DNA of 64,000 nucleotides, taken from contig NC_092676.1 of assembly GCF_964355755.1 (NCBI RefSeq), positions 563,788 to 627,787 on the forward strand. The letters are read 5' to 3'. The notes below the pieces were generated by a model. That model saw only the letters and a list, made by a program, of their open reading frames with translations, was not told the origin of the DNA and did no database searches. The first letter of the stretch is position 1, and each line of letters opens with the position of its first letter. The position numbers and the translations under genes were made by a program. Shown here piece by piece: positions 13,015 through 56,730 of the stretch. This DNA comes from Antedon mediterranea (lineage: Eukaryota; Animalia; Echinodermata).

Positions 13015-25469
<12,455 letters not shown>

Positions 25470-29000: not shown

Positions 29001-29965
29001 ATCAACGAGGCAAAGCCGAGTTGATATAACCTTTCATCATTCACCAAGTGCCATTATTTGTACCATTACACGAATACAAAACATTCATTATTTGTTTTAT
29101 ATAACATCTAGACGTTTTTTTTTCGTACACAAAAATTTTTCAAAAAGTACTATTTAACGATCGTTGAATAGTGCGTACTATTGCACGCCATGTGACCCAC
29201 ATTCGTCCAATCAAATGACAGGAATTTATATAGGTGTTATATAAATTGCGTTATAAGCATGTTATAGACGTATAGTAACCATTTATGTCAAAAAATAAAA
29301 AGGTCGAAATATGGCCATCTTTAGAAAAAATCCCTGTACTATAGTAAGGGATTTTTTCAAAAAAATTGCCAAAATACGCACTTTTTAAAATACTGTTATT
29401 ATGCAATATTATTGCTATATATGTGAATATATTGCGTTATAAGCATCTTATAGACGTATAGTAACCATTTATGTCAACAAAAAAAATGTCGAAATATAGC
29501 CATTTTTTCAAAAAATGGCCAAAATACACACTTTTTAAAATACTGTTATGCAATATTATTGCTATATATGTGAATATATTGCGTAATAAGCATCTTATAG
29601 ACGTATAGTAACCATTTATGTCAAAAAATAAAAAGGTAGAAATATGGCCATTTTTGGAAAAAATCCCTGTACTATAGTACAGGGATTTTATCGAAAAATG
29701 GCCAAAATACGCACTTTTAAAAATACTGTTATTATGCAATATTATTGCTATATATGTGAATATATTGCGTTATAAGCATCTTATAGACGTATAGTAACCA
29801 TTTATGTCCAAAAATAAAAATGACCAAAATAGCCACTTTTTAAAATTCAATTATTAGGCGAAAATAGTGCCATATATGCGTTATCATCTTACAGAGCCAT
29901 AGTAATCAGTTAAATCTAAAAATAAAAGGGTCAGAATTTGGTCATTATGTGATTCTGCGCATGAC
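26100..29965. repeat. Satellite array, unit about 185 bp, about 19 units, with an internal palindrome; probably carried by a Helentron/HINE-type element starting near 25822
   Basis: ccctgtactatagtaaggg recurs at 26708, 26893, 27078 and 27264. Terminal-type hairpin tgcgcaga...tctgcgca near 26437-26466, with a second tctgcgcatg near 29955. Confidence 0.9.
28931..29244. mobile_element. Insertion of about 314 bp splitting one satellite unit, with a double inverted-repeat architecture (Crypton-like, tentative)
   Basis: The unit gtgaatat|attgcg is interrupted. Arms acaaataatgaatg...cattcattatttgt surround a gaggcaaagccgag core, followed by ttatataacatcta...taggtgttatataa. Confidence 0.75.
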
Positions 29966-31105: not shown

Positions 31106-32782
31106 ATAAAGTGCTAAGTTATTGGGGATGTGACATTTTAAACAGGTAAATTTTAGAGTAAACAATTTTTACAGTTGGTCCATGAAACAATTTAAGTATG
31201 GTCTTTATGTAAAAACTTGAAAATTAAAGACCAATCTGTATTATTATATAACACTTTGGTCTTTAACTGTATACATCAAGCCAAGTTATTTATATTACAA
31301 TATTATACAACTTGAGAACAATCCAAAATAAAAGTTAAATAAAATGTCTGTAGATGTACATGAGTTATAGAATCTGATATTAACCTCTAAAATGTGGTCA
31401 ATCATTTCAGATCTAAAGGCCAGTTCACACTGAATAATGCACACGCAAAGCAACACGCATCAAATCGTAATCTTGATGTGACAAACTATTTTAAATGAGA
31501 TGTGACGTGTAGGCATCGGGTGATGTGACGTGTAGGCGTCGGGTCAATTCTCAACTTTAATGCGGGGAGTTTAGAACTTGCGCATGAATTTCCTTCACAA
31601 CTTTTTCAAGCTTTGCACGAATTTCTCTGACGCGTGAACTCACGTGTAAACGCTCAGTAGGAACCAGCCTTAATGAATACATATTTCCAAACATTCTACT
31701 ATACTGCCCTCTATATAGAAATCTACCAAATTTGGTGATATTACACACAATTTCACACATAAAAAAAAATTTATATCAAAAAAAGCAATCACACTTAAAA
31801 ATATATATCATTCTATGGTTTGTCTAAACCGGGTTAAATTAAGTATATTTTAATAATAAAATTTACATTTAACAAAAATACATAATTTAATTCCATTATT
31901 TATTTATCAAATTAATAATCTTTACTTTACACAACATTGCTTTACCCAAAACACTAAGTGCGTACATTTTAGTCTTAATTTAACCAGGTAAAGTTAGTCA
32001 ACCAGCTTCAAAATTATCTTTTTTTTAAATGAATTTAAAAATTAATAATCAACAGCACCCAAAAAATTAGTTTAATATACATTATCATTTTATTTTTATT
32101 AAATTATGCAGTATTTACTTAGTTTAAGTTTGTTTTTTTTTTCTTTCTCCCCGCCAACAGGATATAACCAACATAGGCCATCATATTAAGTTCATTTTCA
32201 AACAATTTTAGGCCCTATTTCAAAATTATGGATCTGCCAATGACAAAATATTAAACATTTTTTATTTCTTTATTTAACATGTTGTTGCTATGTATATGTT
32301 TTTGCTATGTATATACTGTATTTCTGTTTTTTTTCACCATGTGTAAACAGACCTTAACCAAGAATACTAACTTAACCATTCTAAGTAGTAAGCTTAATTC
32401 TCTAATACTTATTCATCTGTGGTAAATATGATATAAAACTTGGGTATAAAAATAACATTTAAAGTGTGGATATAAATTTCTTTCTTCTACCTGAAAAATG
32501 AATTCCAGTCATTTTGTACATCTATTTGAATATGGGTTTAGTAACAAATTCTACATCTAATTCAAATTCTGTATCATCCCAATCAGTCTGAACAGACCTT
32601 TAATTCCAATCTATATTATCATCCCAGTGTAAATAGACCTTTAATTTCAACCTGTACAATCATCCCAATCAGTATGAACAGACTTGTATCATTATCCTAA
32701 TCACAGTGTGAACAGACTTTTAATCTGTATAATCATAACCCTATAATGTATTATTATTATTTTTACTAGTGTGAACAAACCT

Positions 32783-35700
32783 CTAGTTCCAATCATCATC
32801 CTCCCAGTCTGAACTTGTATTACTATCGTCTTCAGAATCACTAAGTTCAACAGCCAGACGTCTAGCCAAGATAGCTGCTACTGAGTTTGGAGTGCTATCA
32901 GACCCCTGCTTTTTAGCCTGGGTACGATCTACTTCACGCAGCTTTATACCTGAAAAACAATTAGTAAAATGTCATATAGAATCATAACAGGTATAGTACC
33001 AATTTACCAATAACAGGTATAGTACCAATTTACCAATAACAGGTATAGTACCAATTTACCAATAACAGGTATAGTACCAATTTACCAATAACAGGTATAG
33101 TACCAATTTACCAATAACAGGTATAGTACCAATTTACCAATAACAGGTATAGTACCAATTTACCAATAACAGGTATAGTAGTAGTACCAATTTACCAATA
33201 ACAGGTATAGTACCAATTTACCAATAACAGGTATAGTACCAATTTACCAATAACAGGTATAGTACCAATTTACCAATAACAGGTATAGTACCAATTTACC
33301 AATAACAGGTATAGTACCAATTTACCAATAACAGGTATAGTACCAATTTACCAATAACAGGTATAGTACCAATTTACCAATAACAGGTATAGTACCAATT
33401 TACCAATAACAGGTATAGTACCAATTTACCAATAACAGGTATAGTACCAATTTACCAATAACAGGTATAGTACCAATTTACCAATAACAGGTATAGTACC
33501 AATTTACCAATAACAGGTATAGTACCAATTTACCAATAACAGGTATAGTACCAATTTACCAATAACAGGTATAGTACCAATTTACCAATAACAGGTATAG
33601 TACCAATTTACCAATAACAGGTATAGTACCAATTTACCAATAACAGGTATAGTACCAATTTACCAATAACAGGTATAGTACCAATTTACCAATAACAGGT
33701 ATAGTACCAATTTACCAATAACAGGTATAGTACCAATTTACCAATAACAGGTATAGTACCAATTTACCAATAACAGGTATAGTACCAATTTACCAATAAC
33801 AGGTATAGTACCAATTTACCAATAACAGGTATAGTACCAATTTACCAATAACAGGTATAGTACCAATTTACCAATAACAGGTATAGTACCAATTTACCAA
33901 TAACAGGTATAGTACCAATTTACCAATAACAGGTATAGTACCAATTTACCAATAACAGGTATAGTACCAATTTACCAATAACAGGTATAGTACCAATTTA
34001 CCAATAACAGGTATAGTACCAATTTACCAATAACAGGTATAGTACCAATTTACCAATAACAGGTATAGTACCAATTTACCAATAACAGGTATAGTACCAA
34101 TTTACCAATAACAGGTATAGTACCAATTTACCAATAACAGGTATAGTACCAATTTACCAATAACAGGTATAGTACCAATTTACCAATAACAGGTATAGTA
34201 CCAATTTACCAATAACAGGTATAGTACCAATTTACCAATAACAGGTATAGTACCAATTTACCAATAACAGGTATAGTACCAATTTACCAATAACAGGTAT
34301 AGTACCAATTTACCAATAACAGGTATAGTACCAATTTACCAATAACAGGTATAGTACCAATTTACCAATAACAGGTATAGTACCAATTTACCAATAACAG
34401 GTATAGTACCAATTTACCAATAACAGGTATAGTACCAATTTACCAATAACAGGTATAGTACCAATTTACCAATAACAGGTATAGTACCAATTTACCAATA
34501 ACAGGTATAGTACCAATTTACCAATAACAGGTATAGTACCAATTTACCAATAACAGGTATAGTACCAATTTACCAATAACAGGTATAGTACCAATTTACC
34601 AATAACAGGTATAGTACCAATTTACCAATAACAGGTATAGTACCAATTTACCAATAACAGGTATAGTACCAATTTACCAATAACAGGTATAGTACCAATT
34701 TACCAATAACAGGTATAGTACCAATTTACCAATAACAGGTATAGTACCAATTTACCAATAACAGGTATAGTACCAATTTACCAATAACAGGTATAGTACC
34801 AATTTACCAATAACAGGTATAGTACCAATTTACCAATAACAGGTATAGTACCAATTTACCAATAACAGGTATAGTACCAATTTACCAATAACAGGTATAG
34901 TACCAATTTACCAATAACAGGTATAGTACCAATTTACCAATAACAGGTATAGTACCAATTTACCAATAACAGGTATAGTACCAATTTACCAATAACAGGT
35001 ATAGTACCAATTTACCAATAACAGGTATAGTACCAATTTACCAATAACAGGTATAGTACCAATTTACCAATAACAGGTATAGTACCAATTTACCAATAAC
35101 AGGTATAGTACCAATTTACCAATAACAGGTATAGTACCAATTTACCAATAACAGGTATAGTACCAATTTACCAATAACAGGTATAGTACCAATTTACCAA
35201 TAACAGGTATAGTACCAATTTACCAATAACAGGTATAGTACCAATTTACCAATAACAGGTATAGTACCAATTTACCAATAACAGGTATAGTACCAATTTA
35301 CCAATAACAGGTATAGTACCAATTTACCAATAACAGGTATAGTACCAATTTACCAATAACAGGTATAGTACCAATTTACCAATAACAGGTATAGTACCAA
35401 TTTACCAATAACAGGTATAGTACCAATTTGGTTGACTAGGGGTGTCTGAGGGGTTATACTGTAGTTGAGTTTAAGAAGCTTGCTAAATGTTGGTTTGTGT
35501 TTGCTCCATGTTTTCAATAAATGAAAAATCAAAGACTAAATAATAATTTTTTTTTTTTTTTTTTTATTTCAACTTTATTTATAGAGGGTAACCCTTCCAG
35601 CTGAACCCGCAGGCCAGCTGATATTCAGGGGCCCTCTTGAAAATGACAAAATATATAAAACTATACTTAACTAATACGAATCTACTATATACATTTAAAT

Positions 35701-38700
35701 TTAAAACTATTATATAAAAAAATAATTATCCAAAAATAAGTCCTGGAATAAGACTACTGCAGTAACTGAATATATTTACTGTAGTAACTGAATAGAGTTA
35801 TAAAGCATGTTATTTATGTCAACTTCATCACTGCTTACTTGATGCAATAAAGGAAATAAATAAATAATAAATAAATAAAATATGCCAAATAATATTGCAT
35901 ATTTTCAAAATGTACAGTACCTGTTCTGATAGCAGTAAGTAGGTCACTCCTGGGATTTTCCTCTGGTTCCTTCGGTGGTGGTGGAGCTACTCTAGCTGGA
36001 GAAGACGTCATCATCGTCGGCACAGGAGGACCTTGCGGTACAGGAGGTGGAGGAGGTACAAAACCAACATCTGGTGGTGGTGGAGGTGCAGGAATATATG
36101 CAGATGGACCAGTATCATATGGTTCTGGATATCCCTGCATGGGTGGCGGCGGCGCTATTGGAATATGCTGCAGATTGTCATTCTGCTCGTCATAGTCTAT
36201 ATCCTGTCTGTAATCCTGGTCGGTCATCTGTGGTTGGTACGCCGGTGCATCTGGGTATTTAGGCGGTGACGGTACATGTTGTTGTAAATTGTACTCATTC
36301 TGGTATCCAGTATTTATTGGTAGTGCTCCGTTACCCATTGGTTGAGGCGGCGGTGGTGGTGGTGCAGCTGCCGGTCGGTGCGGTGCAGATCTACGTGCTT
36401 CCTGTCTGCTCATTCGGTCCCCTTGGTCTTGGTACGAAATACCGCCTGTGTACTGCGGGTCATCTTCTGGTACATGAAGCTGGTTTTGTGTAGTATTGTT
36501 CTCTTCTGGTGGCGCTCTGTGATGTTCAATCTGGGGTTTTTGGTCTTGCACAAGGTCCGCGCCATCTTTCAACCGCACCCATTGGTCCATCCTTGATTTT
36601 GCTTTTCTTGGCTGATGGGATAATGTTCCCTTTTCTGGTTTCTTATGCTAAAAATTTTTAAGGCAACAACAAAATTGTAAAGTAAAAAAAGTAAAGTATT
36701 GGTCTACAAACTACATTGAAGCAACTTCCATCCTATTGGTTAACATTTATAAAAGACAGACCAAGTCTGATAATTTGGATCACAAATTTTTAAAACTTTC
36801 TGTTATAAAGATTATAAGAACAAGTACAAACTACTTCATACTCCTCCAACAGCGAGTAACTCGCCAATTACACTACAGGATAGATAAACTATTTAATAAT
36901 TTATCGTGCTTATAAACTCAGTCTCATTTGAGGCTTAGGGAGTGGAGTTGAAAGAGTCATGAGTTACAACCCTGCACTAGGTCAGGATTGAACTCGGGAG
37001 CTTGGGATTGGAAGGCAAGCATGTTAACCACCAAACTACAGCTCCACTACTTATTTATTTATTATATGTAACACAACTGGTGTCTAACCTTTCGTCGATG
37101 CCTACGCTCTTGTTTGAGTACAGAAATGTTCTTTTTCTGTTCTTCGCACCATAATTCAAAGAAGTACCTTGGTTTGGTGTAGAATTCTAACCCTTCTTTG
37201 CCATCTTCCCTGTAAGAGAAACATAGTACAACTTCCTATCTTTGTTTTTACAAAAAAACAATGTGATACATTCACTAATGTAAATATATTTTAACTTAAT
37301 TTAATTGTTATCTTCATTGGAAGAAAGAAATACATTATAATTGTAAAATAGATTTTAAGTTGGTGGCCCATTCAGATTTTAAGCATGAGAAAGACTGAAT
37401 TTTGAAGTGCCATAGTATAATTTATTATTTTTATTACATTTTTAGAATGATAATTATGAAAATTTAATGAGCATTGTGGCTTAGAAGTTGAAAAAGTCAT
37501 GGACTACCATTAAACTTATGAGCTGTAAAGTAATAACTAACAATTATCAGTAAGTAAGTAATTATGCAGTCAAATAATCAGCCAACATCAGAGGGTTGGC
37601 AATACTTAACCATTTAATTTTATAATAACCTTTACATACAGGTATTTAAAATTGGGAATTTTTTGTTGTTGTCCACCAATGTTATTTACTGTTAAATGTT
37701 AAATTTGAGTTCGATTTTAAATAAATATCAAATGCTATTAGTTAGATATTTTCTTTATTTATTTAAATTGGGAGTTTTAAAATTTTTCTTTTTATCTGCT
37801 TTAAATGGTCAAGGAAACATTGTCAATTTGTTCATATTTTATCCAAAAAAGGAAGACAATTTCACGGTTTAAATAATGGACCATTTTTGGTATAAAACCA
37901 ATTGTAAAATTCAAATAAATTGGAACCATAAAGACTAATTTCATAATTGTTTATTTTGTAATGTTAATGGAGGCAACATAAATGTTCTTTAACCTTAATA
38001 AATACACAACAATAATGTAATAATAATAATAATATAATAATTCCCAAAAAAACATGAAAAAAAAAATGTAGTTATTAAAAGGAACCATTTTTCTGAACAC
38101 CTTTTAAAGACTTTGTAAACAAGAACAAACAAATGCTGGCATTGTATGTAACAACATGCCAATTGCATTCAAGTGTTGATGATTCTGAGAGTGTGTTCCA
38201 ATTTATAACAATGTCTCTCCCGAGGGCTCTGTACATCAGAGACTACTCATTTTTAAACGTCACCATTCTTGACGTGAATTGATCAAACTACTGCGTCTAT
38301 TAGCATTATCAATCCTTACGTGAATTGATCAAACTACTCCAGCTATTAGCATTATCAATCCTTTATAAATGGGTTTGGATAAAAAATGCATGACTTGACA
38401 TACAAACACACATGGCATACAACATTTTCAAATCTAATTTTTTTTCCAAACAAATACAAATTGAAAACTATATTGTTGAAATTAAAATAACACAGAAACA
38501 AAAGCACAACAAAATATTAGTTTAGTAATTTAAAAAATGATGTTCTGCTTTCTGACCGTAGTACCAGCATCATAGGTATGACATGCCATGTGTGCCAAAA
38601 TGTATCTTTTATGGAAAATATAAGCCTAATTTTTGCTTAGAACATAAGTTTTCTGATGTACAAACCCTAGGAGGCACTGTCATATTCAGGTATAGCTATG

Positions 38701-41700
38701 ACACGCAAAATGTATAAATTGTATACAGTGTCATATTGTAATTTTATACTATTCCATATTTATAACAACTTTTACCTAAACAAATTAAGGATAAGGTGAT
38801 TCTGGACGCAGCTTATACTTCAGTTTACTGAAATATCCAACTTTAACTACAAATTACTGGATACCGATATTTTAAACAGCCTATACTGCTATATGTTCCT
38901 AATGATCTGAAGTGTCAGTAAATGTATTAACTGTGATTTTTTTAGTGCTTTTCTTGTAATTTGTTTTTACTTGATTCATGACAATTTTAATTTGTCATAG
39001 AATAGGTTATAATGACATTGATTGATTTGTGTTTCCTTCACAATTTAGCCCAAAGCTGATGACATTTAAATAAATGGTAAAATTTACAAACCCTTCAAAG
39101 AGAAAATAGAACACAGAATAGGTAAAAATTTAACAGCATTTATCTTTCAAATAAATTTTGCTCAATATGATGTTAAATTTGTACAAATTTATTGTTAAAT
39201 TTTGGCAAATATGGTAATATAAGGGCAAATCATTATTGATTATCAGCCCAATTGAACGAGTTTAATACATACATGATTAACCAGATGATTTACGATGACT
39301 TATGCTAATAATAATAATCCACGACATTATGTTAAATAATATTCAAATTGAAATTCCTTGAGAATTCTAATCGTTTCACAAGGTTAAAATATATTTATTA
39401 AAGTTGAATGACTTATTTTGAATAAAATGCCCTGGGGTAGTTTATTATTCAGTAGGCCATTTATTTGAGGGGGCATAACACTAAAACATATATATATAAT
39501 ATGGTAGAACAGCTATTAAGGGGACACCTTTGGGTCCCAACAAAGCATTCCCTTAATAGAAGTGTCCTATATTTGTTGCCCTTGTTCATGTCATGGAAAA
39601 TTGTGCCCTTTGAGTAGTGTCCCACAGGAGACGTTCAACCGTACTCTAATAAACTTACCACTAAACCCAACATGGAAGCAAATGAATACATTACCTGTAT
39701 GGCGTAAGAATGTGTAAGAGTGGAGGTGGTTCGCACTTAACCGTGTAAGTGTCGTGAACGGCGGTCGGACGCTTCTCTTTCGATAACATTTCTTGGTCTA
39801 AAATCACTTTACTTTGAAACGGAGCATATGCCAGTATATCTTGTAAGGACACTAAACAACATTGACAACATTAAAGACAACATACAACATAGTAAATCAA
39901 AGATAATGTAACAACATTAACATACATCTCTTCCAATCAAAACTGTATAGAATTACAAGGTATAATTAAATAATTAAAGAAAAACAGTATTAATATGCAA
40001 AGAAGCGAATTAAAAAAATTATAAATTATGGTAGTATATTTTAAGCTGACCATATTTTAGTTTGTTTTTAAATTGTTTGTGTTTAATGTGTCACTGTCTG
40101 TACTATGATTGTGATAACATGACCATGATAATAATAAATCTGATATTTATTTAATGACCAATACAAAATACTGAAAAGTTTCTTTTGGGTCAATATAATG
40201 CAAAACTGTCACTGGACTTTGAACGTGGATATCAATCACTATACTTTCTTATCATGATTAAAGTCAATTCCTTAATACTATTAAATAATAATAGTAGTAA
40301 TGCTTAACTAATGTATAATTCCACACTAGGGGCAAACTGTTTTGGTATTATTATGTATCTGTAATAGTATGTCCAATAACGTTGTTCCTTTTTCAGTGAT
40401 TATCCTCTTTTATTTATCGAAAGTGTTAGGTCAAAACATGTTTACTCTATGAATGAGTACTGTATAACCTTTGGGGGTCTGGGTACAACATTTGGTAACA
40501 ATTGGGGGGGGGGGGGGAGGTGATAAAACTGGTATAATCAAATTTCATTAGTTACAATGGAATTGTCTTGTGTTCCTGTACAACGTTTTGTAAAAATTTG
40601 AGGGTGTGATTACCGGTATAATCAGATTTCATTTAAACAATGGAATTGTCTTGTGATCCGGTTTTAGCATAGATTATTGGGTGGTATTATACTTGAGCAT
40701 AGGATTTAACTTGGTCACAGCATTTAAACATTGAAGTCATGATCTCTTATCATTGTTATAATGCACAATCATTTAATATTCTACTAATGTCTTTAAAATA
40801 TACTGTACTCATGCGGATGTTACATTATAACATGTACAGTAGGTTGTTGAGTAAATGCAGAATGTAGATCTGATTTCAGTTTATTCTACTTAGAGAAACA
40901 CCTTAAATATTGTAAATTATTTTAATCATTGCTTTTTTTTTGCCAATTGCTATGTGGGTGGATTCAAATATTGCAGTAATAAAACTTAACACTGATTATT
41001 CCAAAAGAAAACAGACATTTATATAAATTAAATGTATAAACGAAACTAATGATGAGGCACGACCTGGATTTAACAGCAATGACGTCAAAGACAACTGTTT
41101 CCCAAACTTGATTGTTGATGCAAAATAACATCAAAATCTTTATTTCCTGTGCAAATGGACTTTTGATTTGTAGACATGATTGATGTGATAAGCCTCTCTT
41201 AGATGTAATCTTATTTGTTCTGATAAGATCTAGTAGGCTTATAGCATCAAGATTTCATCATCATTATACTGTACTTACTGGGAAAAAACTAGAAACATAG
41301 GGCATAGAAATCCAATAATGATTAATACAAAATTGAGAGTCTGCATGGATCAGGAAGATGATGAATACAGTAATGCCTCTATAGATCAAAAAGAGGGGTG
41401 GGGATCAAAAAGAGGGGTGGGGATCAAAAAGACGGGTGGGGATCAAAAAGAGGGGTGCGGATCAAAAAGAGGGGTGCGGATCAAAAAGAGGGGTGCGGAT
41501 CAAAAAGAGGGGTGCGGATCAAAAAGAGGGGTGGGGATCAAAAAGAGGGGTGGGGATCAAAAAGAGGGGTGGGGATCAAGAAGAGGGGTGAGGATCAAAA
41601 AGAGGGGTGCGGATCAAAAAGAGGGGTGCGGATCGAGGTGTATAGTATTTTAGTATTTGTATAGTCATTTTAGGATACCATTTGTTTATCTAGGTAAAGC

Positions 41701-44700
41701 ATACATTTGATGTCTCTATGAATCAGGAGGAGCAAGGGGGAGGGAGGTATATGTATTTGTTCTGTCCTAGACAAAATGCTTGAAAAAAATTATTATCGTA
41801 TTCTTCAGCACAAACTATTACATTAAAATTGCTCAATAATCATTGAATGTGTATTGTATTGAAATAATCCCAACATTTAAAATATACTAAATACACACTT
41901 ATACAACTACTGTACAATGTTTGATCAATACAGGAAGTCAAAGAATAAAATATATAATAATAATATTCTTTTTATAATGTTTATCTAGTAAGTCACAATA
42001 AATATACTCCCTCATTAAATGGTGATCTAGTATTTTATTATGATAAAAAACATTTGTTTGTTTTAGCTGACTACATACAGTGTAGTTTGAAAGATTGTAG
42101 TGGAAATAAAAGTCTAGTTTCTTTTCTCTGTTAAATAAACATACAGGCACTGCACATTATTGCATTTAAATCATGAATAGGAGGCTTGTATTGTAATACG
42201 GTGTGCTTTGAATTTGTGAGAATTTGAAATTATTGATTTGGTCAACCTTACCAGGGCTAACAGCAAACATACATAATTACAACACTAACAATATATTATA
42301 GATTTGAATACATTAAATACAACTGCAGCCAGAGTCAGAATGACTACAAATCAAATTAATGAACAGAGTACCTTGAACCCCAGTACATACGTACATGTTC
42401 ATTTTAGGCTATGGTGTTAATGATTTTAGGCCTGTAATCCAATATCTTCAATTGACCCAATTATTTATGATTATAATGTTACTAATTTAAAATCTTGTAT
42501 GTATCAATGAAGGGGATGCTGATCACCGAGTATAGTCGAAATTCTATTTTTGTGTTCCTAGAAATAATTAGTTCATACTATAATAATAAATAATGCTATA
42601 AATATTATACGTTACAATACATTCATTATTTGTACTAAAATAAAATGTAAATTTGAAAAACGCAATACATCAGTATCTAAATTGCTCAAGTCAAGTCAAG
42701 TCAGGACATTTGCTTAAAGCAAGAGATTTGTATTAGTATTAATATACAAATTGCTTGAGTTAAGCAGATATCATCCCAAGTGTACAAACCAAATTCAATT
42801 TGATCTTTACAGTATTTGGTTTCATAAGGGGGGTTAACATTAATAGCGATACATCTAACTAGGACAACATAAGCTGTGTAGACTTGTACAATGAATAAAT
42901 TACTATCAAAATATAAAATAACATATCACGATTAAAATTATTTTGATTTAAATAAAGAGGATTTACTTCAAACAAACTCAATCAAAAAATCGTATTAGAT
43001 TTCAATCAGAAATTATATATGTATGATTATTAAAGTAATATTGTCAACCATGAATCTATTTTAGCATTTTAAATGTATTATGACTTAAATCATTACTGTT
43101 ATACAGTAGCCTACAACCTGTGTAGTAATGAAAGACTGTAGAAGATTTTATTGTAAATTACCTTTTGGGAAAATTAAATAAATGAAAGAATTTAGAATTA
43201 TCTCCAATTAACATTAAACTTTAATAATTATTACTGCTTTCATTACATTGATATAAACATTAAAATAACATTATTAATGTTCCACATTTAGAATGACATG
43301 ACCTTTAAGTTTAAATTTAAAACTAAGGTTTGTATAAAATTCAGAATATTCTCATAAGATTTTGATAAATTAAACCTAAACCGAAACAATTTATAAAAAC
43401 ACAGACACTGTACTACATATTGTCACTGTTTATTATTTGTATGATACCACATTTTGTTGCCTAAATTATGATTTTTTTTTTTAATGTGTAAAAAACCGAA
43501 CAAAGACAAATATTTTAAATAATAAAATATATTTTATATAAATTCATAAAGGAAGCTAACTGGTAAATAATGATTAATAATGTAATGATGCATTATTACA
43601 AAACACATTAAATAGCTGACAATTTTGATTTATAAAACAGAATCTACTGTCATGATCTAATGCATTGTAATTATAATACTTAGCATCGTTAACATATATT
43701 TTTATCGTTTCTAATAAAACTGAAAATAAGAACTGATTGGAAACTAGGACAATAAAGACCAACGATCTGAGGAGAGGAAAGAGGAGGAGTGATGGGAAAT
43801 GGGCAAAGAGAAGAAGGGGTAGTGGAGAAGATGGAGGGAGAAGGGGTAGAGAGGAGGAGTTGAAGAACAAAATGTTTCAATGTTTCTTTCCTTTATTTCA
43901 ATTCGTAAACAAATTGAAGGTCAACATTTCAGTATAGTCTTATAAGGTTACAGCAAATTACTTAAAAGGGACATATCAACTACGTACGAGAATAAAAAAA
44001 GTCTATAAATATATACTGTAATGCAGTTGTAAATTTAAATACCAATAGTCAAGATGGATACAAATTTAGTATGAACATAGATTTTGGCAGGCAGTATTTC
44101 TTTATAAAGACAGTGGGGATAAGAGTTAAGACTAGAGGTAAGAGACTGTGTACACAGTAATCAAAATTGTATTTATTTGTATGTACTTTATGCAGTACAG
44201 TATAATATGCAAGAGGCTGTGTAACTTATATTTCTATAAATAGATAGTACTCAATTGCAAAAACAGAGAGCATGTTCCAAAATTAATTATAAAAAGAAAG
44301 GCTTGGGAATTTCTATGAATCCGATATTAATCAATTTTAAAAACATGAAATTAATTTCAACTGCTAGCCACAGCTACTGTCACTGATGATTATCAACGTG
44401 ATTGCATGTTTAATAAATGCAACTTACTTTATCGCCAACTTCAAATTTACGACTAACAAGTAGCCCGAGAAAAAAAGAATTTTATTCATGCAAACTGATG
44501 GAAACATAAGATTTTTTTGTAAGGTAATTATGAACATGTTTTACGCATAAATTATGCTTCAAGTCTGGATCGGTAAAGCTAGCTATAAATATAGTTAACA
44601 ATGTTTAAAGAATTTAACCATTTTATGCCTCTATGTTTTACAACTATATCAGTGAATATTCTGTATAATATATTACTGTATAATTAATATGCCTAGAATA

Positions 44701-47700
44701 AACACATACAGTAAGTGTTTAACTGATTCCAGCTACAGTATGTTTAAACTGCTCAGACAATATTCCCGGAGGCACTGATAAAACAAAAAAAATGTGTGCA
44801 GTGTTTAAGAATAGAATGACCTCATTTCGGGTTCCACATAAACATACTGAAGGTGCCAGAACTACAGAGCCCAACAATTCACAGTTCTTTTTAATTTCTC
44901 AAGTTAAACACTCCTCACTTTATTCAAGAAAAACAATAAGAGAGAGGGCACTCTTGCCACGATGAGAGTAACCCAATTTTATGAATATTTTCGTGTCGCT
45001 GTCATTAAATGATGGTGGTTATCTGATTTGGTTACAAGTTAAAGACTTTCAATTTAGAGGTATAATTGACAGATGTTACAAATCTATTATATTACTGTAT
45101 CAATGATCTATTTCTGTATCACAGTCAATGATGGTTTGTTGTTTTCATTTCTACAGCGGTGGTATATTCTACTGTTTATTTTGCCACATAGTTTTGAGTT
45201 TTGCTGATTCTATCTAATGCACTTGCGTAGAACTATTCTCACATCGCCTTACAAAATTCTGGAGTGTAAAATCATTCATCAGTTTTGCTATGCAATGTGA
45301 AAGGGGTAATACAGGTAAAAAACTAAATGACTAACTTTTAGCAAGATAATATACTTGATATTGTTATTGAAATTTTGGGAATAAAAAAAGTATGTATAGA
45401 TGTGTTGATTATATGTTTGTTTGTAAACATGAAATAATGATTTTTGATAACTTGACAAAATGACCACAAAGCAACATATCCGTATGATTACTGCACATGC
45501 CTACAAGCTAATCCGAGTTGTGATAGCTACCAAACTCCATCCAAACCAAGATCATATTGGAATTCAAGCTGTTAACCCACTTGACTGGTTGTACAAAGGT
45601 ACGTGGATGATTGTAATGTTCTGTTGCTTTATAGTCATGGTGTTGCGCAATCAAAAAGGTCTTCTTATTTCTACAGCATGCAAATAGTTTAGTATTGTGA
45701 TGAAGTTATAGATTATAAAACTAAAAAATATAAATGATTGTTTTATTCTAAAGCGTGTTTACTAAGAGCACCATGTTAGGCCAGTGTATAGTGCACCATG
45801 TTAGGCCTTGTGACTAGTCTTTGATTGGTAGAGACGTGTTGTTACACAACCTTTGATTTGCGTCCGTTTTAGACTAAACCATTACCTGTAAGGGGTGAGT
45901 AAGTTCAACTTCGGTGGTTTATCGCATAGCATATATAGCTCCCTCATTGTTGAGGGCATAGTGTGACCCGCAACTACTTGTTGGTCCATGAGCGTGGAGC
46001 TTTTGTAAGCTTTACGCAAATGAATATCTTGTAATAAAACTGAAAAATTGCCAAAAAAAATAAAAATGTATCGTCGACTGCTTATTACCATGGCAGACGA
46101 GACACAGGTTAATTGAAAAAAATAAATGATTAGCATAGTAATCACCCTACATTTGCATATTAATTGCATAATATTTGCATATTAATTGCATATTATTTGC
46201 ATCATTTGCATATTAATTGCACCAATGTCCTTCTCATGATTGAATTTTTTCAGGCCACAAAATTGTATAATTTGATAAAATTGAATTGAGAGCAATGTTT
46301 TGCGATATCAAAAGCTAATTTAACAAGACAGATAACATCACATATCATTCAAGACCTACAGTATATCAGACACTTGTTTCAACATAATTTAAGATTAATA
46401 AAATGTTTTGAAAATTTGCTGGCCAAAATGATTGCTGCGCACGACAAAATAATAGTGTAATGGCCAGTGAAGTTTGCTTTAATAAAGAATATGCAAATGT
46501 AGTGGTGAAACTTTATTATCTTTTCTATCTACAGCTGTGAATAAAAGCAAAATATAAACTATAAATGCTTTCAAGAAGTGTTTGTCTAGAACTGTATTTG
46601 ACTGGAATTACAAAATTCAAGACAAGCACTCTTGTATGCCAAATAATTATCTTTAAATTAAAAAATGTGCATTATTTAGTATAAAATAAGAAGAAGTAAT
46701 AAATGTGCGAATGACAGATTTTTATGATTAATTATTATATGTGCTAGATTAATACACCTTAATATTATTTAAATAAAAATAATATGAATTTGCATATTGT
46801 CTATAAATCAACATAATAATTTGAATAATTAACTACAAATTAGCTTTGCTATTATGTTGGTACAGTACTGCTTTCCTAGACTTGAATCCAAACCATTAGC
46901 TTAGTGGTCTAGAGTAAAACATCTCACCAATTATAATAAATCTTTATTTTTTTTTCTATTCATTATTAGCTAAAGCTCTGTCTACACTATCAAACTTTAT
47001 GCAACAAAAAATTGTGATGTGCCCATATGGACAAGATGATGTCATATCTCTACCATATTTGGGCACATCACACTACTTTGATAGTGTACACAAAGCTTTA
47101 TAGCCACAAAGAAATAATCTTCTTAAACATTTTTAGTCTTATTGAATTTGAACAAAAAATTTAAACTTTTGCAAATGACTATTTACTAAGCAAAGCAAAT
47201 ATTGCCATACAGTAGAATATGTCTGTGGTGTAGTGTCACCAACACCTTATCAGAAGGGACCAATTCCTTGCTACTCAGTGAGTTTAAATTATTCCTGTAA
47301 TGTTCTGTGATGCTGTAGGAAGTATAGCGTTTATTTTGTAATGACACGGTTTAAAAATCACCCAATTACATATTAAATAGTAATATAAAACCAAACAAAA
47401 TTTTATAAAAACATCTTGTTTTGAATTTTACAAACATTTTTGTTTCAGTGTTTTGTTTTTTTGTTGTGTTTTCCAGAAAGATTATAATTGAAACTTCTTT
47501 CTAATTTTATCAAGCGTAAAATAAATAAATAATTTAAATTGTTCATTGCACTATACCTGGATCCTGTGTTGCATCTAACTTGGTTACCTTCACCGACAGT
47601 TTATCTATCCTGTCTTGAAGAACATTGGCTCGGACAAAAACCGAGTTAGCCTCTTGATAGAGGTCGCCAAATATATCCTCGGCATGTTTACTAAGGTTAC

Positions 47701-47824
47701 TTAGTTGGCGTATAACACCAGCTAATGTACTGTTAGTCACACATTCAAGTTCGTTCCTAATTCCTTTGTCGATTGTGCCTCGACTAAGGTGTACTGGCTC
47801 TACGTGTCGTTTTATAAGCGGCAT
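32783..47824 (-). CDS. WASF: WAVE/SCAR (WASF family), 478/479 aa. Exons 47824-47557, [46039-45886 or 39851-39695], 37209-37089, 36647-35921, 32949-32783
   Basis: WHD start MPLIKRHVEPVHLSR..NELECVTNSTL..RQLSNLSKHAEDIFG, then EDGKEGLEFYT..YFFELW, a basic region, polyproline, WH2 (RSDLLTAIRTGIKLREV), C region (VAAILARRLAVE) and acidic tail DWEDDDWN*. All phases are consistent. Confidence 0.95.
32985..35427. repeat. 26-bp minisatellite (taacaggtatagtaccaatttaccaa), about 94 almost identical copies, in the last WASF intron
   Basis: Direct tandem units. The only visible variant is a 6-nt insertion near 33180. Confidence 0.98.
35547..35640 (-). mobile_element. 3' end of a retroposon (stem-loop followed by a poly-A tail)
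   Basis: Poly-T run on the + strand followed by the hairpin gagggtaaccct..cagctg...cagctg..aggggccctc. Confidence 0.45.
36850..37050 (-). mobile_element. tRNA-Gly(TCC)-derived SINE; tRNA-like head at 36973-37045
   Basis: Minus strand ggagctgtagtttggtggttaacatgcttgccTTCCAAtcccaagctcccGAGTTCAATCCtgacctagtgca shows A box, TCC anticodon loop and B box, with decayed stems. The 3' boundary is approximate. Confidence 0.7.
39695..39851 (-). CDS. WASF: WASF meander exon variant B (157 nt; VSLQDILAYAPFQSKVILDQEMLSKEKRPTAVHDTYTVKCEPPPLLHILTPYR), missed by the ORF track
   Basis: gttgtttag acceptor, AG|gtaatg donor, same phases as A, no stops. Conserves LQDI, DQ, P, Y, C-x-x-P-P and LTPYR. Confidence 0.88.
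39892..39944 (-). promoter_or_regulatory. Candidate splicing RNA-pairing arm Y, about 40 nt upstream of WASF exon B
   Basis: RNA AGUUUUGAUUGGAAGAGAUGUAUGUUAAUGUUGUUACAUUAUCUUUGAUUUAC pairs with arm X in three helices, with an 8-nt bulge. Confidence 0.65.
41384..41635. repeat. 19-bp G-rich minisatellite (ggatcaaaaagaggggtgc/g), about 13 copies
   Basis: Direct tandem units in the intron between WASF exons A and B. Confidence 0.95.
45816..45861 (-). promoter_or_regulatory. Candidate splicing RNA-pairing arm X, 24 nt downstream of the WASF exon A donor
   Basis: RNA GCAAAUCAAAGGUUGUGUAACAACACGUCUCUACCAAUCAAAGACU is complementary to arm Y at 39892-39944. Confidence 0.65.
45886..46039 (-). CDS. 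WASF: WASF meander exon variant A (154 nt; VLLQDIHLRKAYKSSTLMDQQVVAGHTMPSTMRELYMLCDKPPKLNLLTPYR)
   Basis: ttttcag acceptor, AG|gtaatg donor, phase 1 in and phase 2 out. Close to the canonical WAVE sequence. Confidence 0.93.
46974..47097. mobile_element. MITE family 2 copy
   Basis: TAA|AGCTCTGTCTACACTATCAAA ... TTTGATAGTGTACACAAAGCT|TTA. Confidence 0.85.
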
Positions 47825-48827
47825 TTCAATAACAATTTAATTCACATCTGAAAAAAAAAAAAAAAATCAGTTACAATTCTATTTCAATTCTAAATTTTCT
47901 GGTTGCAGTTTTCCCTCCAATAAGCAGTACATCAGTGTGTAAGTCGTGCTTAAATAAAGACTTAAATTTAAAGTAAATCCTTTCATTGAGCCTAAAACAT
48001 GCACCATGTGATACTGATCATTTTTGTCCCGTTTTCTAACAAGAAAATGGCGATAAAATAAAAAACAGGCACATGCGCTTGGAGATGGTGTTAAAGTGAA
48101 TTTACAAATACAAATCTAATCTCAGAAATACCAAAAGAAATAGTTTTTTTCTACTAAACCATTGGCCTTCATCTATTAGAACCACTTCAAATATAGTGAC
48201 AGGGACCAGCTAATACTAGATTAACACCATTTTACTTCATAAACCAGGAAGTATAATATTGACACAATCACTATTCAATCCATCAAATTTATGATTGATT
48301 CTACAATAGAATCAATCGTTTATTTAAGTTCAGTCAATGGAACAAGCATCACATGCAGCAATTGTTGTTGGCTATGCTAAATGCCGCTATGCTGTTATGC
48401 TGCTATGCCGTTATGCCGCTTCATTCACATTACATTTTATGGCCTGTTCCTATTGAAAAATCTTGAGAAACAGTTTTCCCCAAAACAGGAATTGGTAGTT
48501 TATACTGTAGATAAATTTTGATGCTGTTTTCAGTACAAGTTGATCTTAACAATCCGAGAACAGTTTTTGAAATCTTGAAAAAAGTAACAAAATTTAATTT
48601 TCACTATATTAGATTTTTGAATAAATAAATTATGAAATGATTTAAGCCATTTATTGGAGCAGAACATGAACTGATCATAAATGAGCCAACCACCTTGAAT
48701 ACAGTCTACAGTACAGAAAAAAATGACTGCAACTTTTCCTATGAGCTGGCGTCTGTAATATGACAATTATTGCAATGTTACTGGTGGTAGCACCTTTGAT
48801 ACGAGATTCACTAAAATGACTTTTGTA

Positions 48828-49280
48828 CTATTTAACATGGGTATAACACTTGTTGGTCTATTTAACATGGGTATAACACTTGTTGGTCTATTTAACATGG
48901 GTATAACACTTGTTGGTCTATTTAACATGGGTATAACACTTGTTGGTCTATTTAACATGGGTATAACACTTGTTGGTCTATTTAACATGGGTATAACACT
49001 TGTTGGTCTATTTAACATGGGTATAACACTTGTTGGTCTATTTAACATGGGTATAACACTTGTTGGTCTATTTAACATGGGTATAACACTTGTTGGTCTA
49101 TTTAACATGGGTATAACACTTGTTGGTCTATTTAACATGGGTATAACACTTGTTGGTCTATTTAACATGGGTATAACACTTGTTGGTCTATTTAACATGG
49201 GTATAACACTTGTTGGTCTATTTAACATGGGTATAACACTTGTTGGTCTATTTAACATGGGTATAACACTTGTTGGTCTA
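48828..49280. repeat. 30-bp perfect minisatellite (ctatttaacatgggtataacacttgttggt), 15 copies
   Basis: Direct tandem units. They explain the MLNRPTSVIP ORFs. Confidence 0.98.
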
Positions 49281-50521
49281 CAATTCTGTGAACCATTCTA
49301 TTCCTTTATATATGTTTTCAATGCATGAGTAATGTTTAGATTGGTTGTTGAGGTATACAGGTACCTGTCTTTAGGAATGTAGCTTTATTGTGTACCCTGC
49401 AGGGCATGCAGTAAGGTGAACACTTGTAACTTAAAATTGGTGAAAGAACTACCGGAAGATCCTAGAATCTTAGATCAGTTTACATGTGTCCTGTGGTTAA
49501 CACAGCAGTGATCAGACAGATAGTTTACAATCATTGCGACTTATTCCTCCAGGTTCTCTGCAAGTCCTCTACAGGTAACCTGCTAACACGTTTCTGATGA
49601 TTAATATGGCTATGGATGATTTAAAGCCTGTTACTCTGAAATGGGTACTTTAAATTTTGTTAAACACTAAAAAGAACCGATCTTAATTACGCATTTTAAA
49701 AACCCCAAAAGATTCCGGTCTAGATCGGCAAAACATGTTTTAAACAAATTTAGCTTTATTTAAACAAATTCATATATTGTTTGAATACTGTAGGAATTGG
49801 TAAAAGTAGAGATATATTTAAAAAATACATATTTTATTTTAAATCCCAACCAAATTGGTTTGAATTAACGCCACATTATACTGAATAATCTTTAGTTGTA
49901 TTAATTATTACGAATTTATTACACTTGCAGACTGTGAAATGACAAAGATTTTACAGGCTTTTCCTGTAGGAATGTATAAGCAACATAAATCGATAAAAAC
50001 AAATTTTATTTCAATCAAACATGTCATTTATAGCACTAGCCACTGAGCATGTGCAATGACCTGATAATAAATGTCACTGAGCATGTGCAATGACCTGGTA
50101 ATAAACGACAAGAATTTGTAAGCTTTACCAATCAATACCTTCATGTATAATAATGCAAGACAAAATATAATATTTGATTACTGCTGAAATGAAGAAGACC
50201 GATAGTCTGAGATGTCTTGAGGGATGTAATTCATCTACTGCTCAAATCGCAAACTAAAACTACATTTGTAATTTCAACATGCTACTTTTCACTTATTAAT
50301 TTAAACAAAAATATTTCTACTGTTTTTTTTTAAACTTCTTGGAAACTATACTGCATTAAGCAAATCAATATGATTTGAAAAATGTGACAACTATAGAAAC
50401 AGGCACAGATTTTTCTGAATATATTCTGTAATAATACAACTTGTCTTTGACACATGAAATCCATACTAATAACAGCACAGAACTTAAAAAGAAGAACATA
50501 TCATTAACAATACTTCTGTTA

Positions 50522-50846
50522 AGTTCTGTCTACACACTATCAAACTAGTTTGACAAAAAAAGTGATATGCTCAAATACAACAGGAAGTCAAGAAGTCAAG
50601 AAGATAATTTTATCTTGTAATTTTTTAGATGTTTTTATATGAATGGTTTTATGCTATATTTGTATTTATTGTGTTTTCTTTGTTCTTTTGACGAGCAATG
50701 AATTTCCTTTTTGAGGATCAATAAAAGTTATCTTATCTTATCTTATCTTATATTATATGGTAGTGATACTGTATGACATCATCATGTCTATATATGTGCA
50801 CATTACATTTTTTTGTCACATAAAGTTTGATAGTGTATACAGTGCT
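50522..50846. mobile_element. MITE family 2 copy interrupted by a 5'-truncated retroposon tail (about 50578-50753)
   Basis: The MITE halves flank a segment ending ggatcaataaaag(ttatc)n. Confidence 0.75.
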
Positions 50847-51852
50847 TAATTATCATCATCCTACTGTACAGAATCTGTATCATAACTTCTTAAATCCTAT
50901 TTTCTGGGAGATATCCTAAACAATTTAGATTCAAACATATGCAGGAACTCACTTATCATTGAGGAAATCATTGCACATTTTGTTGACTTGATTGATCTGA
51001 TTTTCAATATTTTCGCTGATGACTCTGAGCGAGCCAGATAGAAGTGTTCATTTTATACATCAATGATTTATCTAATTATATTATTATTACATTATGTTAA
51101 TGATTCAGGGTTCACCAACTTGTTATTAGCGCAAATGATCAACCTGAAGAACTATTAATACAGTAGAATATGACAATCTGTGTCTAAAAAAAAAACATAA
51201 AAATTGAGATTAATACAATCACACTTTTAATAGGCCATTTTACAGTTATTCACAGATTACAACATGTTGCAATGTAAATATTGATTCAATATAAATATCC
51301 ACAGTAACTGAGTAACTATATATAAAGCTGTTAGTGCCAGTCTTTAGAGCGCTATCACAGCAATAAAAAGGTGAGTTCAGAAACGCCAGACAAACGTGAT
51401 GAGGTAACAAATTTCAAAAACAGAGCTTTGACAAAAAATAACAAGATTGCCAAAAGCTTATTACATAATTGAATTTAATATTTTGAATACTTCTGTAGCT
51501 TTTACACTTACTTGACCAGACTACAAACTACATTATCTGAATAATTTGGTCCATGTGGAAATACTATCAACTAAATGAAATAGTTAAGCTGACATACTTG
51601 TGAAGCCTACTTGCAGTGCCATTGGGGAATCTAGTAAGGCTCCACCTTCAGCTTCTACAGGATATAAGGCCTGACTTCATTTCCTTTACTACTTCTGGCT
51701 CAGTTTATAAACAACAATAAGGAATCAAGGATATAATTGTTTGAACTGCTCTTGTTTTTCAACTATTAGAACTTTTACTTCTCATTTTTATTTCATAAAA
51801 GGCATGGGATTCGGGAACTGGGGGGGGGGGGGGGGTGACTCTAAAATATAAA

Positions 51853-52640
51853 TTTATTTTATTTATTTATTTCCCAACCAACAGTGAGCTCATGTTTCAC
51901 CACTTACAGGAGGGAACACAGACAAACACGAACATATACAATAAAAAACATTAAACTAAACTACTAACAATGTCACGAAACTTACGGAAATTATTACTAA
52001 AGATATCTAACTCAGGGTTTCTTAAAGTAAAAGAATTATAAGTTTGACTTAATCTACTACTAAAACCATTTTTTAAAACATTTACTCTACTAAAAGGAAT
52101 ATGAAAAGTAGTATTTCTTCTAAGACGACGACTAGGGACTCTAAGGTAAAAATTACTAACTAAGTTACAGTCAAATAAAGAATTAATACATTTATACAAA
52201 AAAACAAGATCAAAAAAGGTTCTACGGGACTCAGGAGATCGGACATGGAAATGAAAGTCAGGATTCTGGTTGTGGCTGATGTAGCGTAAAAAACGGTTAT
52301 GCAGACGCTGAATGCGCGTAGACTGAGTTTTCGAAAGAGAATAAAAAATAACAGAACTACAGTTGAGAATTGGATGGATAATTGAATAATAAAGGTGGAT
52401 TTTGGTTTACAATTACGCCACATCAGCCCAAGCAGTCTATTGCACTTGCCAACAAGATAATCAATATGAAAAGAAAAACAAAGGGAACTATCAATAAAAA
52501 CACAAAGATCTTTTTGCGATTGCACCCTATTAATGGGATTGTCATTAATTAAATAATTATACAATAAAATGTTCTTTTTCAAAGTAATAGTAAATATATT
52601 ACACTTAACTGGATTGAGGGACATACCCCATAAATCATGC
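51853..52640 (-). mobile_element. 5'-truncated CR1-clade LINE (C-terminal ORF2 plus (aataa)n tail)
   Basis: WGMSLNPVKC, RVQSQKDLCVFIDSSLCFSFHID and KCNRLLGLMWRN motifs with frameshifts, and an aataaataa tail at 51853-51872. Confidence 0.85.
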
Positions 52641-55675: not shown

Positions 55676-56620
55676 TTAAACTGTTGATGTACCAAGTTTT
55701 TCTTTCACTTTATCGTCAATGTTTGTGTAATATTTTAGTTTTGCTAGGACGTCTCTCGCTTCTTTCAACTGGTCATTCTTAAATAGCTCTGCAAGTTGTA
55801 TCATTAACTCTTTAATATTCAATTCATTTTCTTCACCAATTTTCTTTACAATTTCTAGGTTGGTTGTATCGGACAACTCTTCATTTAACTCCATCATATC
55901 CATAAGAAATACTTTATCGACCATTGAGTCGCCTTCTTCGATTGGGTGGCCTAGAAGTTCCAATAGATACAATCCTCTATTTAAAGGTTTTAATAATGTT
56001 GAATATGCTTTGTTGACAGCAGAGGACTGCCCAGCTGAGAATTCTTGTTCCTTAGGAGACTTCTGACTGAACTTATCTGGATGAAGTAAGCGTTGAAAAT
56101 TTCGGAATGTTTGAGTAAGTTCTTTTGTGTCAATGTCAAATGATTTTAGTAAACTCATTCTTTGAAAATAGTCAATATTTTCTTGACATGGTTGAATCAT
56201 TTTGCAAGATTCACAAAAAAAATTTACGCCAATCTCAGGATGTGAATTTGAAGCTAAACAATTCCAACATATTGATGAAGTATGGCAAAAACGAATTGGA
56301 CTGCATGTATCGTATCCAACGAGATGCTTAGGCCCAATAACCTTACACATACCACTCCCAAAACGAGCGGACGATATGGCCTTAGTTGCAACATGATCGC
56401 CAGTCTTCAGAAAAATTTCTGGGCCTGGCGAACCGTCCAACATTCTAACACGATATTTATAGTTACATAAGCTTGAAAAAGCCCTAAAATTACATATCTT
56501 ATTTACTTCAATAATATGTACATTACTTGGTTTTGGTAATATACATTTAAACTTCACAAAACACTGCCGTAACACAAATTTAGAACTTTGGATTCGAAAC
56601 ATTACCATGGGCGCTGCCAT
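55676..56620 (-). CDS. HSCB: Mitochondrial Fe-S cluster co-chaperone HscB/HSC20, single exon, 314 aa
   Basis: CWNC...FFCESC metal site, DYF, J-domain LHPDKF, AYSTLLKPLNRGLYLL, FLMDMMELNE and KLKYY. Kozak context aaaATGG at 56620. Confidence 0.95.
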   Translation of the reverse strand: MAAPMVMFRIQSSKFVLRQCFVKFKCILPKPSNVHIIEVNKICNFRAFSSLCNYKYRVRMLDGSPGPEIFLKTGDHVATKAISSARFGSGMCKVIGPKHLVGYDTCSPIRFCHTSSICWNCLASNSHPEIGVNFFCESCKMIQPCQENIDYFQRMSLLKSFDIDTKELTQTFRNFQRLLHPDKFSQKSPKEQEFSAGQSSAVNKAYSTLLKPLNRGLYLLELLGHPIEEGDSMVDKVFLMDMMELNEELSDTTNLEIVKKIGEENELNIKELMIQLAELFKNDQLKEARDVLAKLKYYTNIDDKVKEKLGTSTV

Positions 56621-56730
56621 TTTGTTTATTTGCAATTATAGAGGGCGCCAAAGGTAAACAAACTTTACGGCGTGTTACGTTATCGGAAATAAGTTCATAA
56701 CAAAAATAAGAACTAATTTATTTGCTAATT
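56621..56730. promoter_or_regulatory. 110-bp spacer between the HSCB and CLYBL start codons; bidirectional promoter
   Basis: Divergent ATGs at 56620 and 56731. Contains tagagggcgc and an ETS-like cggaaat. Confidence 0.7.

Follow-up and report, generated by a model that had tools for sequence, protein, structure and literature searches.

The gene for WAVE/SCAR in the crinoid Antedon mediterranea contains two paralogous versions, designated A and B, of the exon that encodes part of the inhibitory meander of the protein, and these are almost certainly spliced as a mutually exclusive pair. The gene lies on the minus strand of a 64,000-nucleotide stretch of the genome (NC_092676.1, positions 563,788 to 627,787; this whole stretch is referred to as the window, and coordinates are positions within it). 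Our favoured reading, to which we assign a probability of roughly 55%, is that one exon or the other is used, that exclusivity is maintained by a helix in the intervening intron together with decay of misspliced transcripts, and that the products are a canonical WAVE and one that grips its WCA region differently. The coding exons are:

47557..47824, minus strand: first coding exon, helix 1 of the WAVE homology domain (WHD), constitutive, phase 1 out; rebuilds residues 1-89 of both isoforms
45886..46039, minus strand: meander exon A, canonical, equivalent to WAVE1 90-141; used in RefSeq isoform X2; 98% identity in Anneissia
39695..39851, minus strand: meander exon B, divergent; used in RefSeq isoform X1; exon-shaped contig in sequencing run X1
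37089..37209, minus strand: constitutive exon with the Tyr151 equivalent, the stem and a basic helix; spliced joint 37089>36647 in run X1
35921..36647, minus strand: constitutive exon with the proline-rich region and the start of WH2; translation match and coverage in run X1
32783..32949, minus strand: last coding exon, remainder of WH2, C and A; translation match to the RefSeq isoforms

A preliminary description of this DNA, based on its letters alone, had placed the two exons, and its coordinates, lengths (154 nt for A, 157 nt for B) and phases (1 in, 2 out) all hold, with AG and GT flanks on the minus strand. The exons are paralogous and both intact, with 17 of 50 encoded residues identical (34%; blastp E 3e-11), and no third copy of the meander exon was found in the window by tblastn or with a profile hidden Markov model (HMM), leaving A and B as the sole copies. 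Joined with A, the other five exons match isoform X2 (XP_071956096.1, 478 amino acids) letter for letter in translation; joined with B, they match isoform X1 (XP_071956094.1, 479 amino acids) equally exactly. The assignment of this segment to the WAVE meander was also right: human WAVE1 residues 91/92-140 are matched by A (E 4.6e-12) and by B (E 3e-6), the WHD with its meander matches the WAVE1 chains of 3P8C, 7USC and 4N78 and the precomputed families PF27569 and PF27560, and an atlas look-up returned WAVE clusters only. A basic stretch, a proline-rich region and a C-terminal WH2-C-A are visible in both isoforms; a local Pfam scan at E 0.001 gave no family for the two Antedon isoforms but picked up WH2 in the orthologues from sea stars and the brittle star.

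The reading frame permits one exon or the other. As had been claimed, including both or neither shifts the frame, with early stops 962 nt (double inclusion) and 825 nt (double skipping) before the last junction; a stop so far ahead of the last junction is a textbook trigger of nonsense-mediated decay. The introns around A and B measure 1,517, 6,034 and 2,485 nt and are all GT-AG with ordinary donors. Because the A-B intron is 6,034 nt long and every site is GT-AG, neither short-intron steric exclusion nor U2-U12 incompatibility is the cause of exclusion.

Four sequencing runs were compared over positions 35700-40300. None is on record as RNA; three, from one sample, are DNA-like, and the fourth, run X1, shows the 441-nt downstream intron spliced out and was therefore taken to be RNA. 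In the three DNA-like runs, coverage of B and its introns is unbroken and flat in depth. The RefSeq isoforms are automatic gene models and could in principle reflect an assembly artefact or mis-annotation, such as a collapsed paralogue or haplotype, but this flat depth, and the occurrence of the same swap in five independently assembled species (below), refute that explanation, the probability of which we regard as negligible. In run X1, a 187-nt contig with a depth of 39 spans B from 39853 to 39694, its 27 leading letters lying off the stretch. Flanking intronic contigs have depths of 3.5-6.3 and constitutive exons 106-132, contig depth being only a hint of expression level. When unitigs (k=31) were simulated for 12 transcript sets, two sets reproduced the B contig in length, leading letters and both ends (187/27/39853/39694), both of them consisting of upstream-A-downstream and upstream-B-downstream transcripts; they also give the next contig its start at 37214 (the 3' end of that next contig, fixed by the input, is no test). 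If A were joined to B, 28 or 1 leading letters would be expected, and double skipping would make the next contig start at 37212; run X1 shows neither. Sets to which double inclusion or double skipping was added do not fit run X1, although rare forms are lost from contigs and would also be concealed by decay. That B is spliced between the flanking exons is strongly indicated in run X1, and the exon pair is real and, on this indirect evidence, expressed. No variants are listed in B or in the 3' arm of the intron helix described below; fewer than two would be expected, so this carries no weight. Frame logic, the paired RefSeq isoforms of five species and the contig geometry all support the mutually exclusive use that had been proposed.

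An inverted repeat, not mentioned in the preliminary description, links the two ends of the 6,034-nt intron between A and B. Its parts are:

45813..45865, minus strand: 5' arm of the helix, +21 to +73 after the A donor, from predicted folding
39875..39946, minus strand: 3' arm of the helix (-95 to -24 relative to B), interrupted by an 8-nt bulge and containing three yUnAy candidates for the branch point, from folding and the P0001 alignment
39852..39874, minus strand: UG-rich acceptor tract of B with a branch-point candidate at -20, from sequence, candidate only
38146..38172, minus strand: candidate for a weaker alternative pairing of the 5' arm, within the intron between B and the next exon, which may be due to chance

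The first and last 100 nt of the intron are predicted to fold together at -48.8 kcal/mol, a value reached by none of 1000 dinucleotide shuffles (mean -31.9, sd 4.4), and only one of 4471 intronic window pairs matches it in strength. Six other donor/acceptor end pairs in the WAVE gene give -14.5 to -31.1 kcal/mol, and the opposite strand folds at -44.3 kcal/mol, more weakly than the transcribed strand. The prediction comprises 49 pairs (43 Watson-Crick and 6 GU) joining +21..+73 with -24..-95, of which about 30 core pairs reach a probability of at least 0.97 when the arms are folded as two strands. Each arm is the best partner of the other over the whole gene; the arms are not repeated in the window, and the depth of the 3' arm is near single-copy in the DNA-like runs. 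A relative is represented by P0001, an open reading frame (ORF) from a contig, which reads through the intron: its degenerate DNA aligns with 39947-39854 at 33.7 bits (maximum of 18.7 for 60 control stretches), the similarity beginning at the start of the 3' arm and having its gaps within the bulge, while the preceding 200 nt do not align. Rfam has no match in 32000-52000. The second partner of the 5' arm, which would loop B out, pairs at -21.5 to -27.7 kcal/mol versus -46.9 kcal/mol for the main partner, with a background best of -27.3.

Between the A donor and the yUnAy at -20, the predicted structure leaves 27 + 23 free nt with the core helix or, if the outer helix forms, about 24 nt, and the other branch-point candidates lie inside or beside the helix. 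Earlier reports on exon exclusion (general mechanisms in PMC6071210) place the steric limit between donor and branch point at about 50 nt (PMC7969005) or 60 nt (PMC13762713), so that the Antedon helix, as predicted, would fall within the 50-60 nt distance of the Dscam 17 type. Should the helix join both ends of the intron in vivo, it would leave about 25-50 free nt between the A donor and the B branch point or would mask branch points; we propose that A could not be joined to B because too little space remains or the branch points are hidden, with decay of frameshifted transcripts as the likely backup. Judged from these predictions, the helix is probably, if by no means surely, the enforcer of exclusion.

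Splice-site competition plus decay might instead suffice to make the exons exclusive, the helix then being due to chance or serving only to set the frequency of B. The early stops far ahead of the last junction speak for this explanation, nucleotide composition alone yields -31.9 kcal/mol, and a predicted structure in Drosophila Rdl proved dispensable, according to PMC13762713. Moreover, among 18 control pairs of intron ends from single-exon WAVE genes of other animals (mean -32.9), one of higher GC content is stronger than the Antedon helix (-52.3). We nevertheless consider this alternative unlikely, although it is the least so of those entertained here, in view of the location of the helix exactly at both ends of the A-B intron, the gene-wide mutual preference of its arms, and conservation of the 3' arm next to 200 nt that do not align. 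The UG-rich sequence before B (39852-39951; five copies of TGTTG in 250 nt, with none before A or the next exon) is a candidate for binding by a tissue-specific splicing factor, and there is one TGCATG within 250 nt after A.

Clusters of ten homologues, drawn from the best 120 of 922 homologues, were examined for the distribution of the exon pair. Anneissia japonica, a crinoid of another family, has the same X1/X2 isoform pair in RefSeq, and P0001 carries a third crinoid-type B, 84% identical; B is therefore neither absent nor disrupted in these relatives, being intact at 82-84% identity in two other crinoids. Isoform pairs that differ only across the meander exon are also present in Acanthaster planci, Asterias amurensis and Amphiura filiformis. 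The swap is thus found in five named species of three classes (crinoids, sea stars and a brittle star) and in P0001, and outside Antedon it is known from proteins alone; this breadth, like the intron helix, is an addition to what was previously described. The sea-star models (P0021/P0138 and P0146/P0145) also differ by an N-terminal extension of 31-40 residues. No B form was found in the records examined for Asterias rubens (1), Diadema (2 of 2), Lytechinus (3 of 3) and one further urchin-like protein, nor in those for the hemichordates Ptychodera (1) and Glandiceps (1) and the amphioxus Branchiostoma (5 of 5); the matches listed include no sea-cucumber protein. Absence from annotation is a weak indication, because crinoid B failed to retrieve the B forms of sea stars and the brittle star among its 15 matches in a library of 1.8 billion.

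B-like ORFs were considered as evidence of a second exon pair in other animals and rejected, since each of 78 metagenome loci has one full meander exon. Second HMM hits in these loci score 7 bits or less, and both flanking exons are on the contig in 21 of them; the loci were retrieved with patterns from the B-like ORF group and are not independent. An HMM built without the B forms still detects every B (21-60 bits). Across other animals (L001-L074) there are at least three WAVE paralogue types with one meander exon each, one of which shares with crinoid B the insertion of one residue after Tyr125. In one locus (L030, 2434-2839), two partial repeats of the 3' half of the meander follow the full exon, either a duplication in progress or an assembly repeat.

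Exon B is under constraint and yet evolves faster than A, as judged from sequence comparisons. Between Antedon and Anneissia, identity is 49/50 in A, 42/51 in B and 134/223 in the proline-rich middle of the protein; between the two sea stars it is 50/50, 40/50 and 150/256, respectively. Identity in B (82% in crinoids, 80% in sea stars) thus exceeds the 59-60% of the proline-rich middle. All six B forms, from three classes, have an open frame, near-constant length and intact phases. Their differences from the canonical exon are unevenly distributed: in well-conserved columns, B retains 35 of 42 cells at residues 128-140 versus 26 of 72 at residues 91-103. C128, P132, L134, L137 and Y140 are kept in all six B forms and P131 in five. 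K99, present in 16 of 16 canonical exons, is lost from every B form, as are R98 and K102 (the latter once replaced by R), V111 and V112 are changed in all six, and K130 is replaced by P in five. In Antedon, the basic patch R98-K99-x-x-K102 is gone and one residue is inserted after Tyr125; the previously noted replacement of a conserved stretch by AYAPFQSKV is correct.

A further explanation is that B is a redundant exon in slow decay, included in few transcripts and devoid of distinct function. B changes faster than A (82 vs 98% identity in crinoids, 80 vs 100% in sea stars) and between classes the B forms agree at only 24-32%, both of which fit relaxed constraint, and B was not seen in the sea-urchin or Asterias rubens records. 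Such decay is hard to reconcile with frames, lengths and phases preserved in six of six forms, with identity of 80-84% within classes, above that of the disordered middle of the same gene, or with an exon-shaped contig well above intronic depth, and we judge it very improbable.

The two meander exons of the crinoid WAVE gene are tandem duplicates, almost certainly spliced one or the other. A97, T99, P100, Q102, L112 and P130 are common to crinoid and brittle-star B, which hints at one origin. In a tree of the 50 exon columns (LG+G4, 18 rows), all six B rows cluster together, supported at 49/82 and subject to a long-branch warning; groupings of crinoid A with B (p-AU 0.14) and of sea-star A with B (0.49) are not rejected, and under a mixture model with 29 rows B needs two changes. 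The trees leave single and repeated origins undecided, and our preference for a single echinoderm origin is slight.

The meander does not form an independent fold. In structural work on the WAVE regulatory complex (WRC), the meander and Sra1 together hold WCA; P131-L134 form the WAVE half of the pocket for Y151 (the tyrosine lock), deletion or replacement of PPPLNI leads to autoactivation of the WRC, and the W helix is touched by alpha2, an element of the first meander half (PMC9481577, Ding 2022). Y151 and the stem are encoded by the next exon and are common to both isoforms. Because the WAVE half of the lock (C128, P131/P132, L134, L137 and Y140) is kept, B would still assemble into the WRC, and we infer that it grips WCA differently within the assembled complex. 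The rewritten first half (R98, K99, K102, V111 and V112) would alter contacts that help to hold the W helix; because invariant residues are lost in B, the grip is more likely to be looser, so that autoinhibition would most likely be loosened in cells that choose B. Two WAVE complexes with different activation, as the preliminary description envisaged, are plausible on these grounds, and retuned activation of the WRC seems slightly more probable than not. That description also stressed retention of the regulatory Tyr and Thr-Pro phosphosites. Tyr125 and Thr138-Pro are indeed present in both A and B of Antedon, but not throughout its relatives: Tyr125 is missing from brittle-star B, and Thr138-Pro from four of six B forms and from the single exons of sea urchins. 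The Abl site, Y151, is in the shared exon, and the case for emphasising the phosphosites is weak. Y125 is described as a target of Src, and S137 of WAVE2 as one of CDK5, in PMC11799376 and 10.64898/2026.10.08.757536.

B might instead change another property, producing a non-inhibited or WRC-independent WAVE or one that differs in partner, stability or localisation. The B forms of sea stars and the brittle star have lost the LQDI start and carry a net charge of -4 to -5 versus +2, and brittle-star B lacks both Tyr125 and Thr138. On the other side, the PPII/L134/L137/Y140 residues of the lock, which make sense only against CYFIP, are kept in all B forms, and both isoforms share the WHD helix responsible for binding Abi and HSPC300; we consider a change of this kind improbable.

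In addition to the stronger control helix, the faster change of B and its divergence between classes, several points count against our favoured reading, in which helix and decay enforce a choice between a canonical and a differently gripping WAVE. The evidence for splicing of B comes from one RNA-like run, over positions 35700-40300, and is indirect, consisting of contig geometry. Conservation of the helix concerns one arm in one relative, in degenerate sequence derived from a peptide, and since the conserved stretch includes the acceptor tract it may have been kept for splice-site reasons alone. The position taken for alpha2, near residues 91-102, is presumptive. P100, R117 and the one-residue insertion have counterparts in the single-exon WAVE genes of other animals; these B-like features of ordinary WAVE genes therefore need not change regulation. 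A more elaborate version, in which a single ancestral echinoderm duplication, retained in crinoids, sea stars and brittle stars, produced B as a pre-loosened WAVE for particular cell types, with a conserved helix across the 6-kb intron enforcing the choice, is correspondingly bolder and remains doubtful.

Both isoforms are already in RefSeq as automatic models. In the literature as far as it was searched, no report of this exon pair was found, subscription journals and preprint supplements lying outside the search. The Kollmar 2012 survey (PMC3298513) describes a WAVE family almost free of alternative splicing, with no alternative exon in any WAVE; the exception in the wider family is WASP of Aplysia. 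Its exons 11A and 11B resemble the present case as exclusive exons in the autoinhibition of an Arp2/3 activator, embodying the same idea of tuned autoinhibition, but they belong to WASP, encode a WH2/C segment and are from one species. Closer by gene is the tandem-exon swap of human and gnathostome WASF3, entered as event 234 in the PMC8373072 supplement (ENST00000335327 vs ENST00000361042) and among the mutually exclusive exons in PMC8153164. This too is a duplicated and swapped internal exon of a WAVE-family gene, but residues 181-239 are exchanged, two exons further on and after the meander, and the meander exon is identical in both vertebrate isoforms; the known WASF3 swap thus misses the meander. 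Human CYFIP1, the binding partner of the meander, has a tandem-exon substitution as well (event 54 of the same supplement). Vertebrate WAVE1-3 and the other single-meander paralogues also vary in the meander, but through duplication of whole genes and with K99 kept, whereas the echinoderm gene swaps the meander exon alone.

As regards mechanism, exons 17.1 and 17.2 of Drosophila Dscam are reported to be exclusive through steric hindrance plus RNA structure (Yue 2013, as cited in PMC7969005, PMC6071210 and PMC13762713). They too are a two-exon cluster with structure-assisted steric exclusion, which in WAVE is predicted only; unlike them, the WAVE helix would close an intron of 6,034 nt before a normal-looking acceptor, and decay after a frameshift is also available. 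Docking-site and selector clusters (Dscam 6, 14-3-3zeta, Mhc) share long-range intronic pairing around duplicated exons, but no convincing competing pair was found in WAVE, where the one strong helix lies between A and B. If the favoured reading is right, the intron helix would give deuterostomes a clear case of exclusion assisted by RNA structure over a distance of 6 kb; the bolder version would make the exon pair the first natural swap of the inhibitory meander of the WRC. Activation of the WRC is understood mainly through the tyrosine lock, and the first half of the meander appears to have been little dissected functionally. The six natural B exons keep the lock and drop otherwise invariant basic residues, and as evolved variants they could be used in the existing WRC reconstitution assay to map that first half.

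Most of the last intron of WAVE (32984-35429) consists of 94 copies of a 26-nt unit at 99% identity, and further large intronic arrays are present at 22871-24962, 26551-29664, 48828-49280 and 57874-58481. An element at 36835-37050, within the 441-nt intron, is of very high copy number (depth 10^4-10^5 in all four runs) and has a tRNA-like head by eye; it is likely to be a short interspersed nuclear element. Exons at 18758-25466 on the plus strand presumably belong to a malic enzyme-like gene, and those at 56710-59405, also on the plus strand, to what we take to be a citrate lyase beta-like (CLYBL-like) gene, both recognised from their translations. Between WAVE and the CLYBL-like gene, a single open frame without introns (55679-56620, minus strand) encodes the co-chaperone HSCB (Hsc20), with a J domain and HSCB_C, possibly as a result of retrocopying or intron loss.

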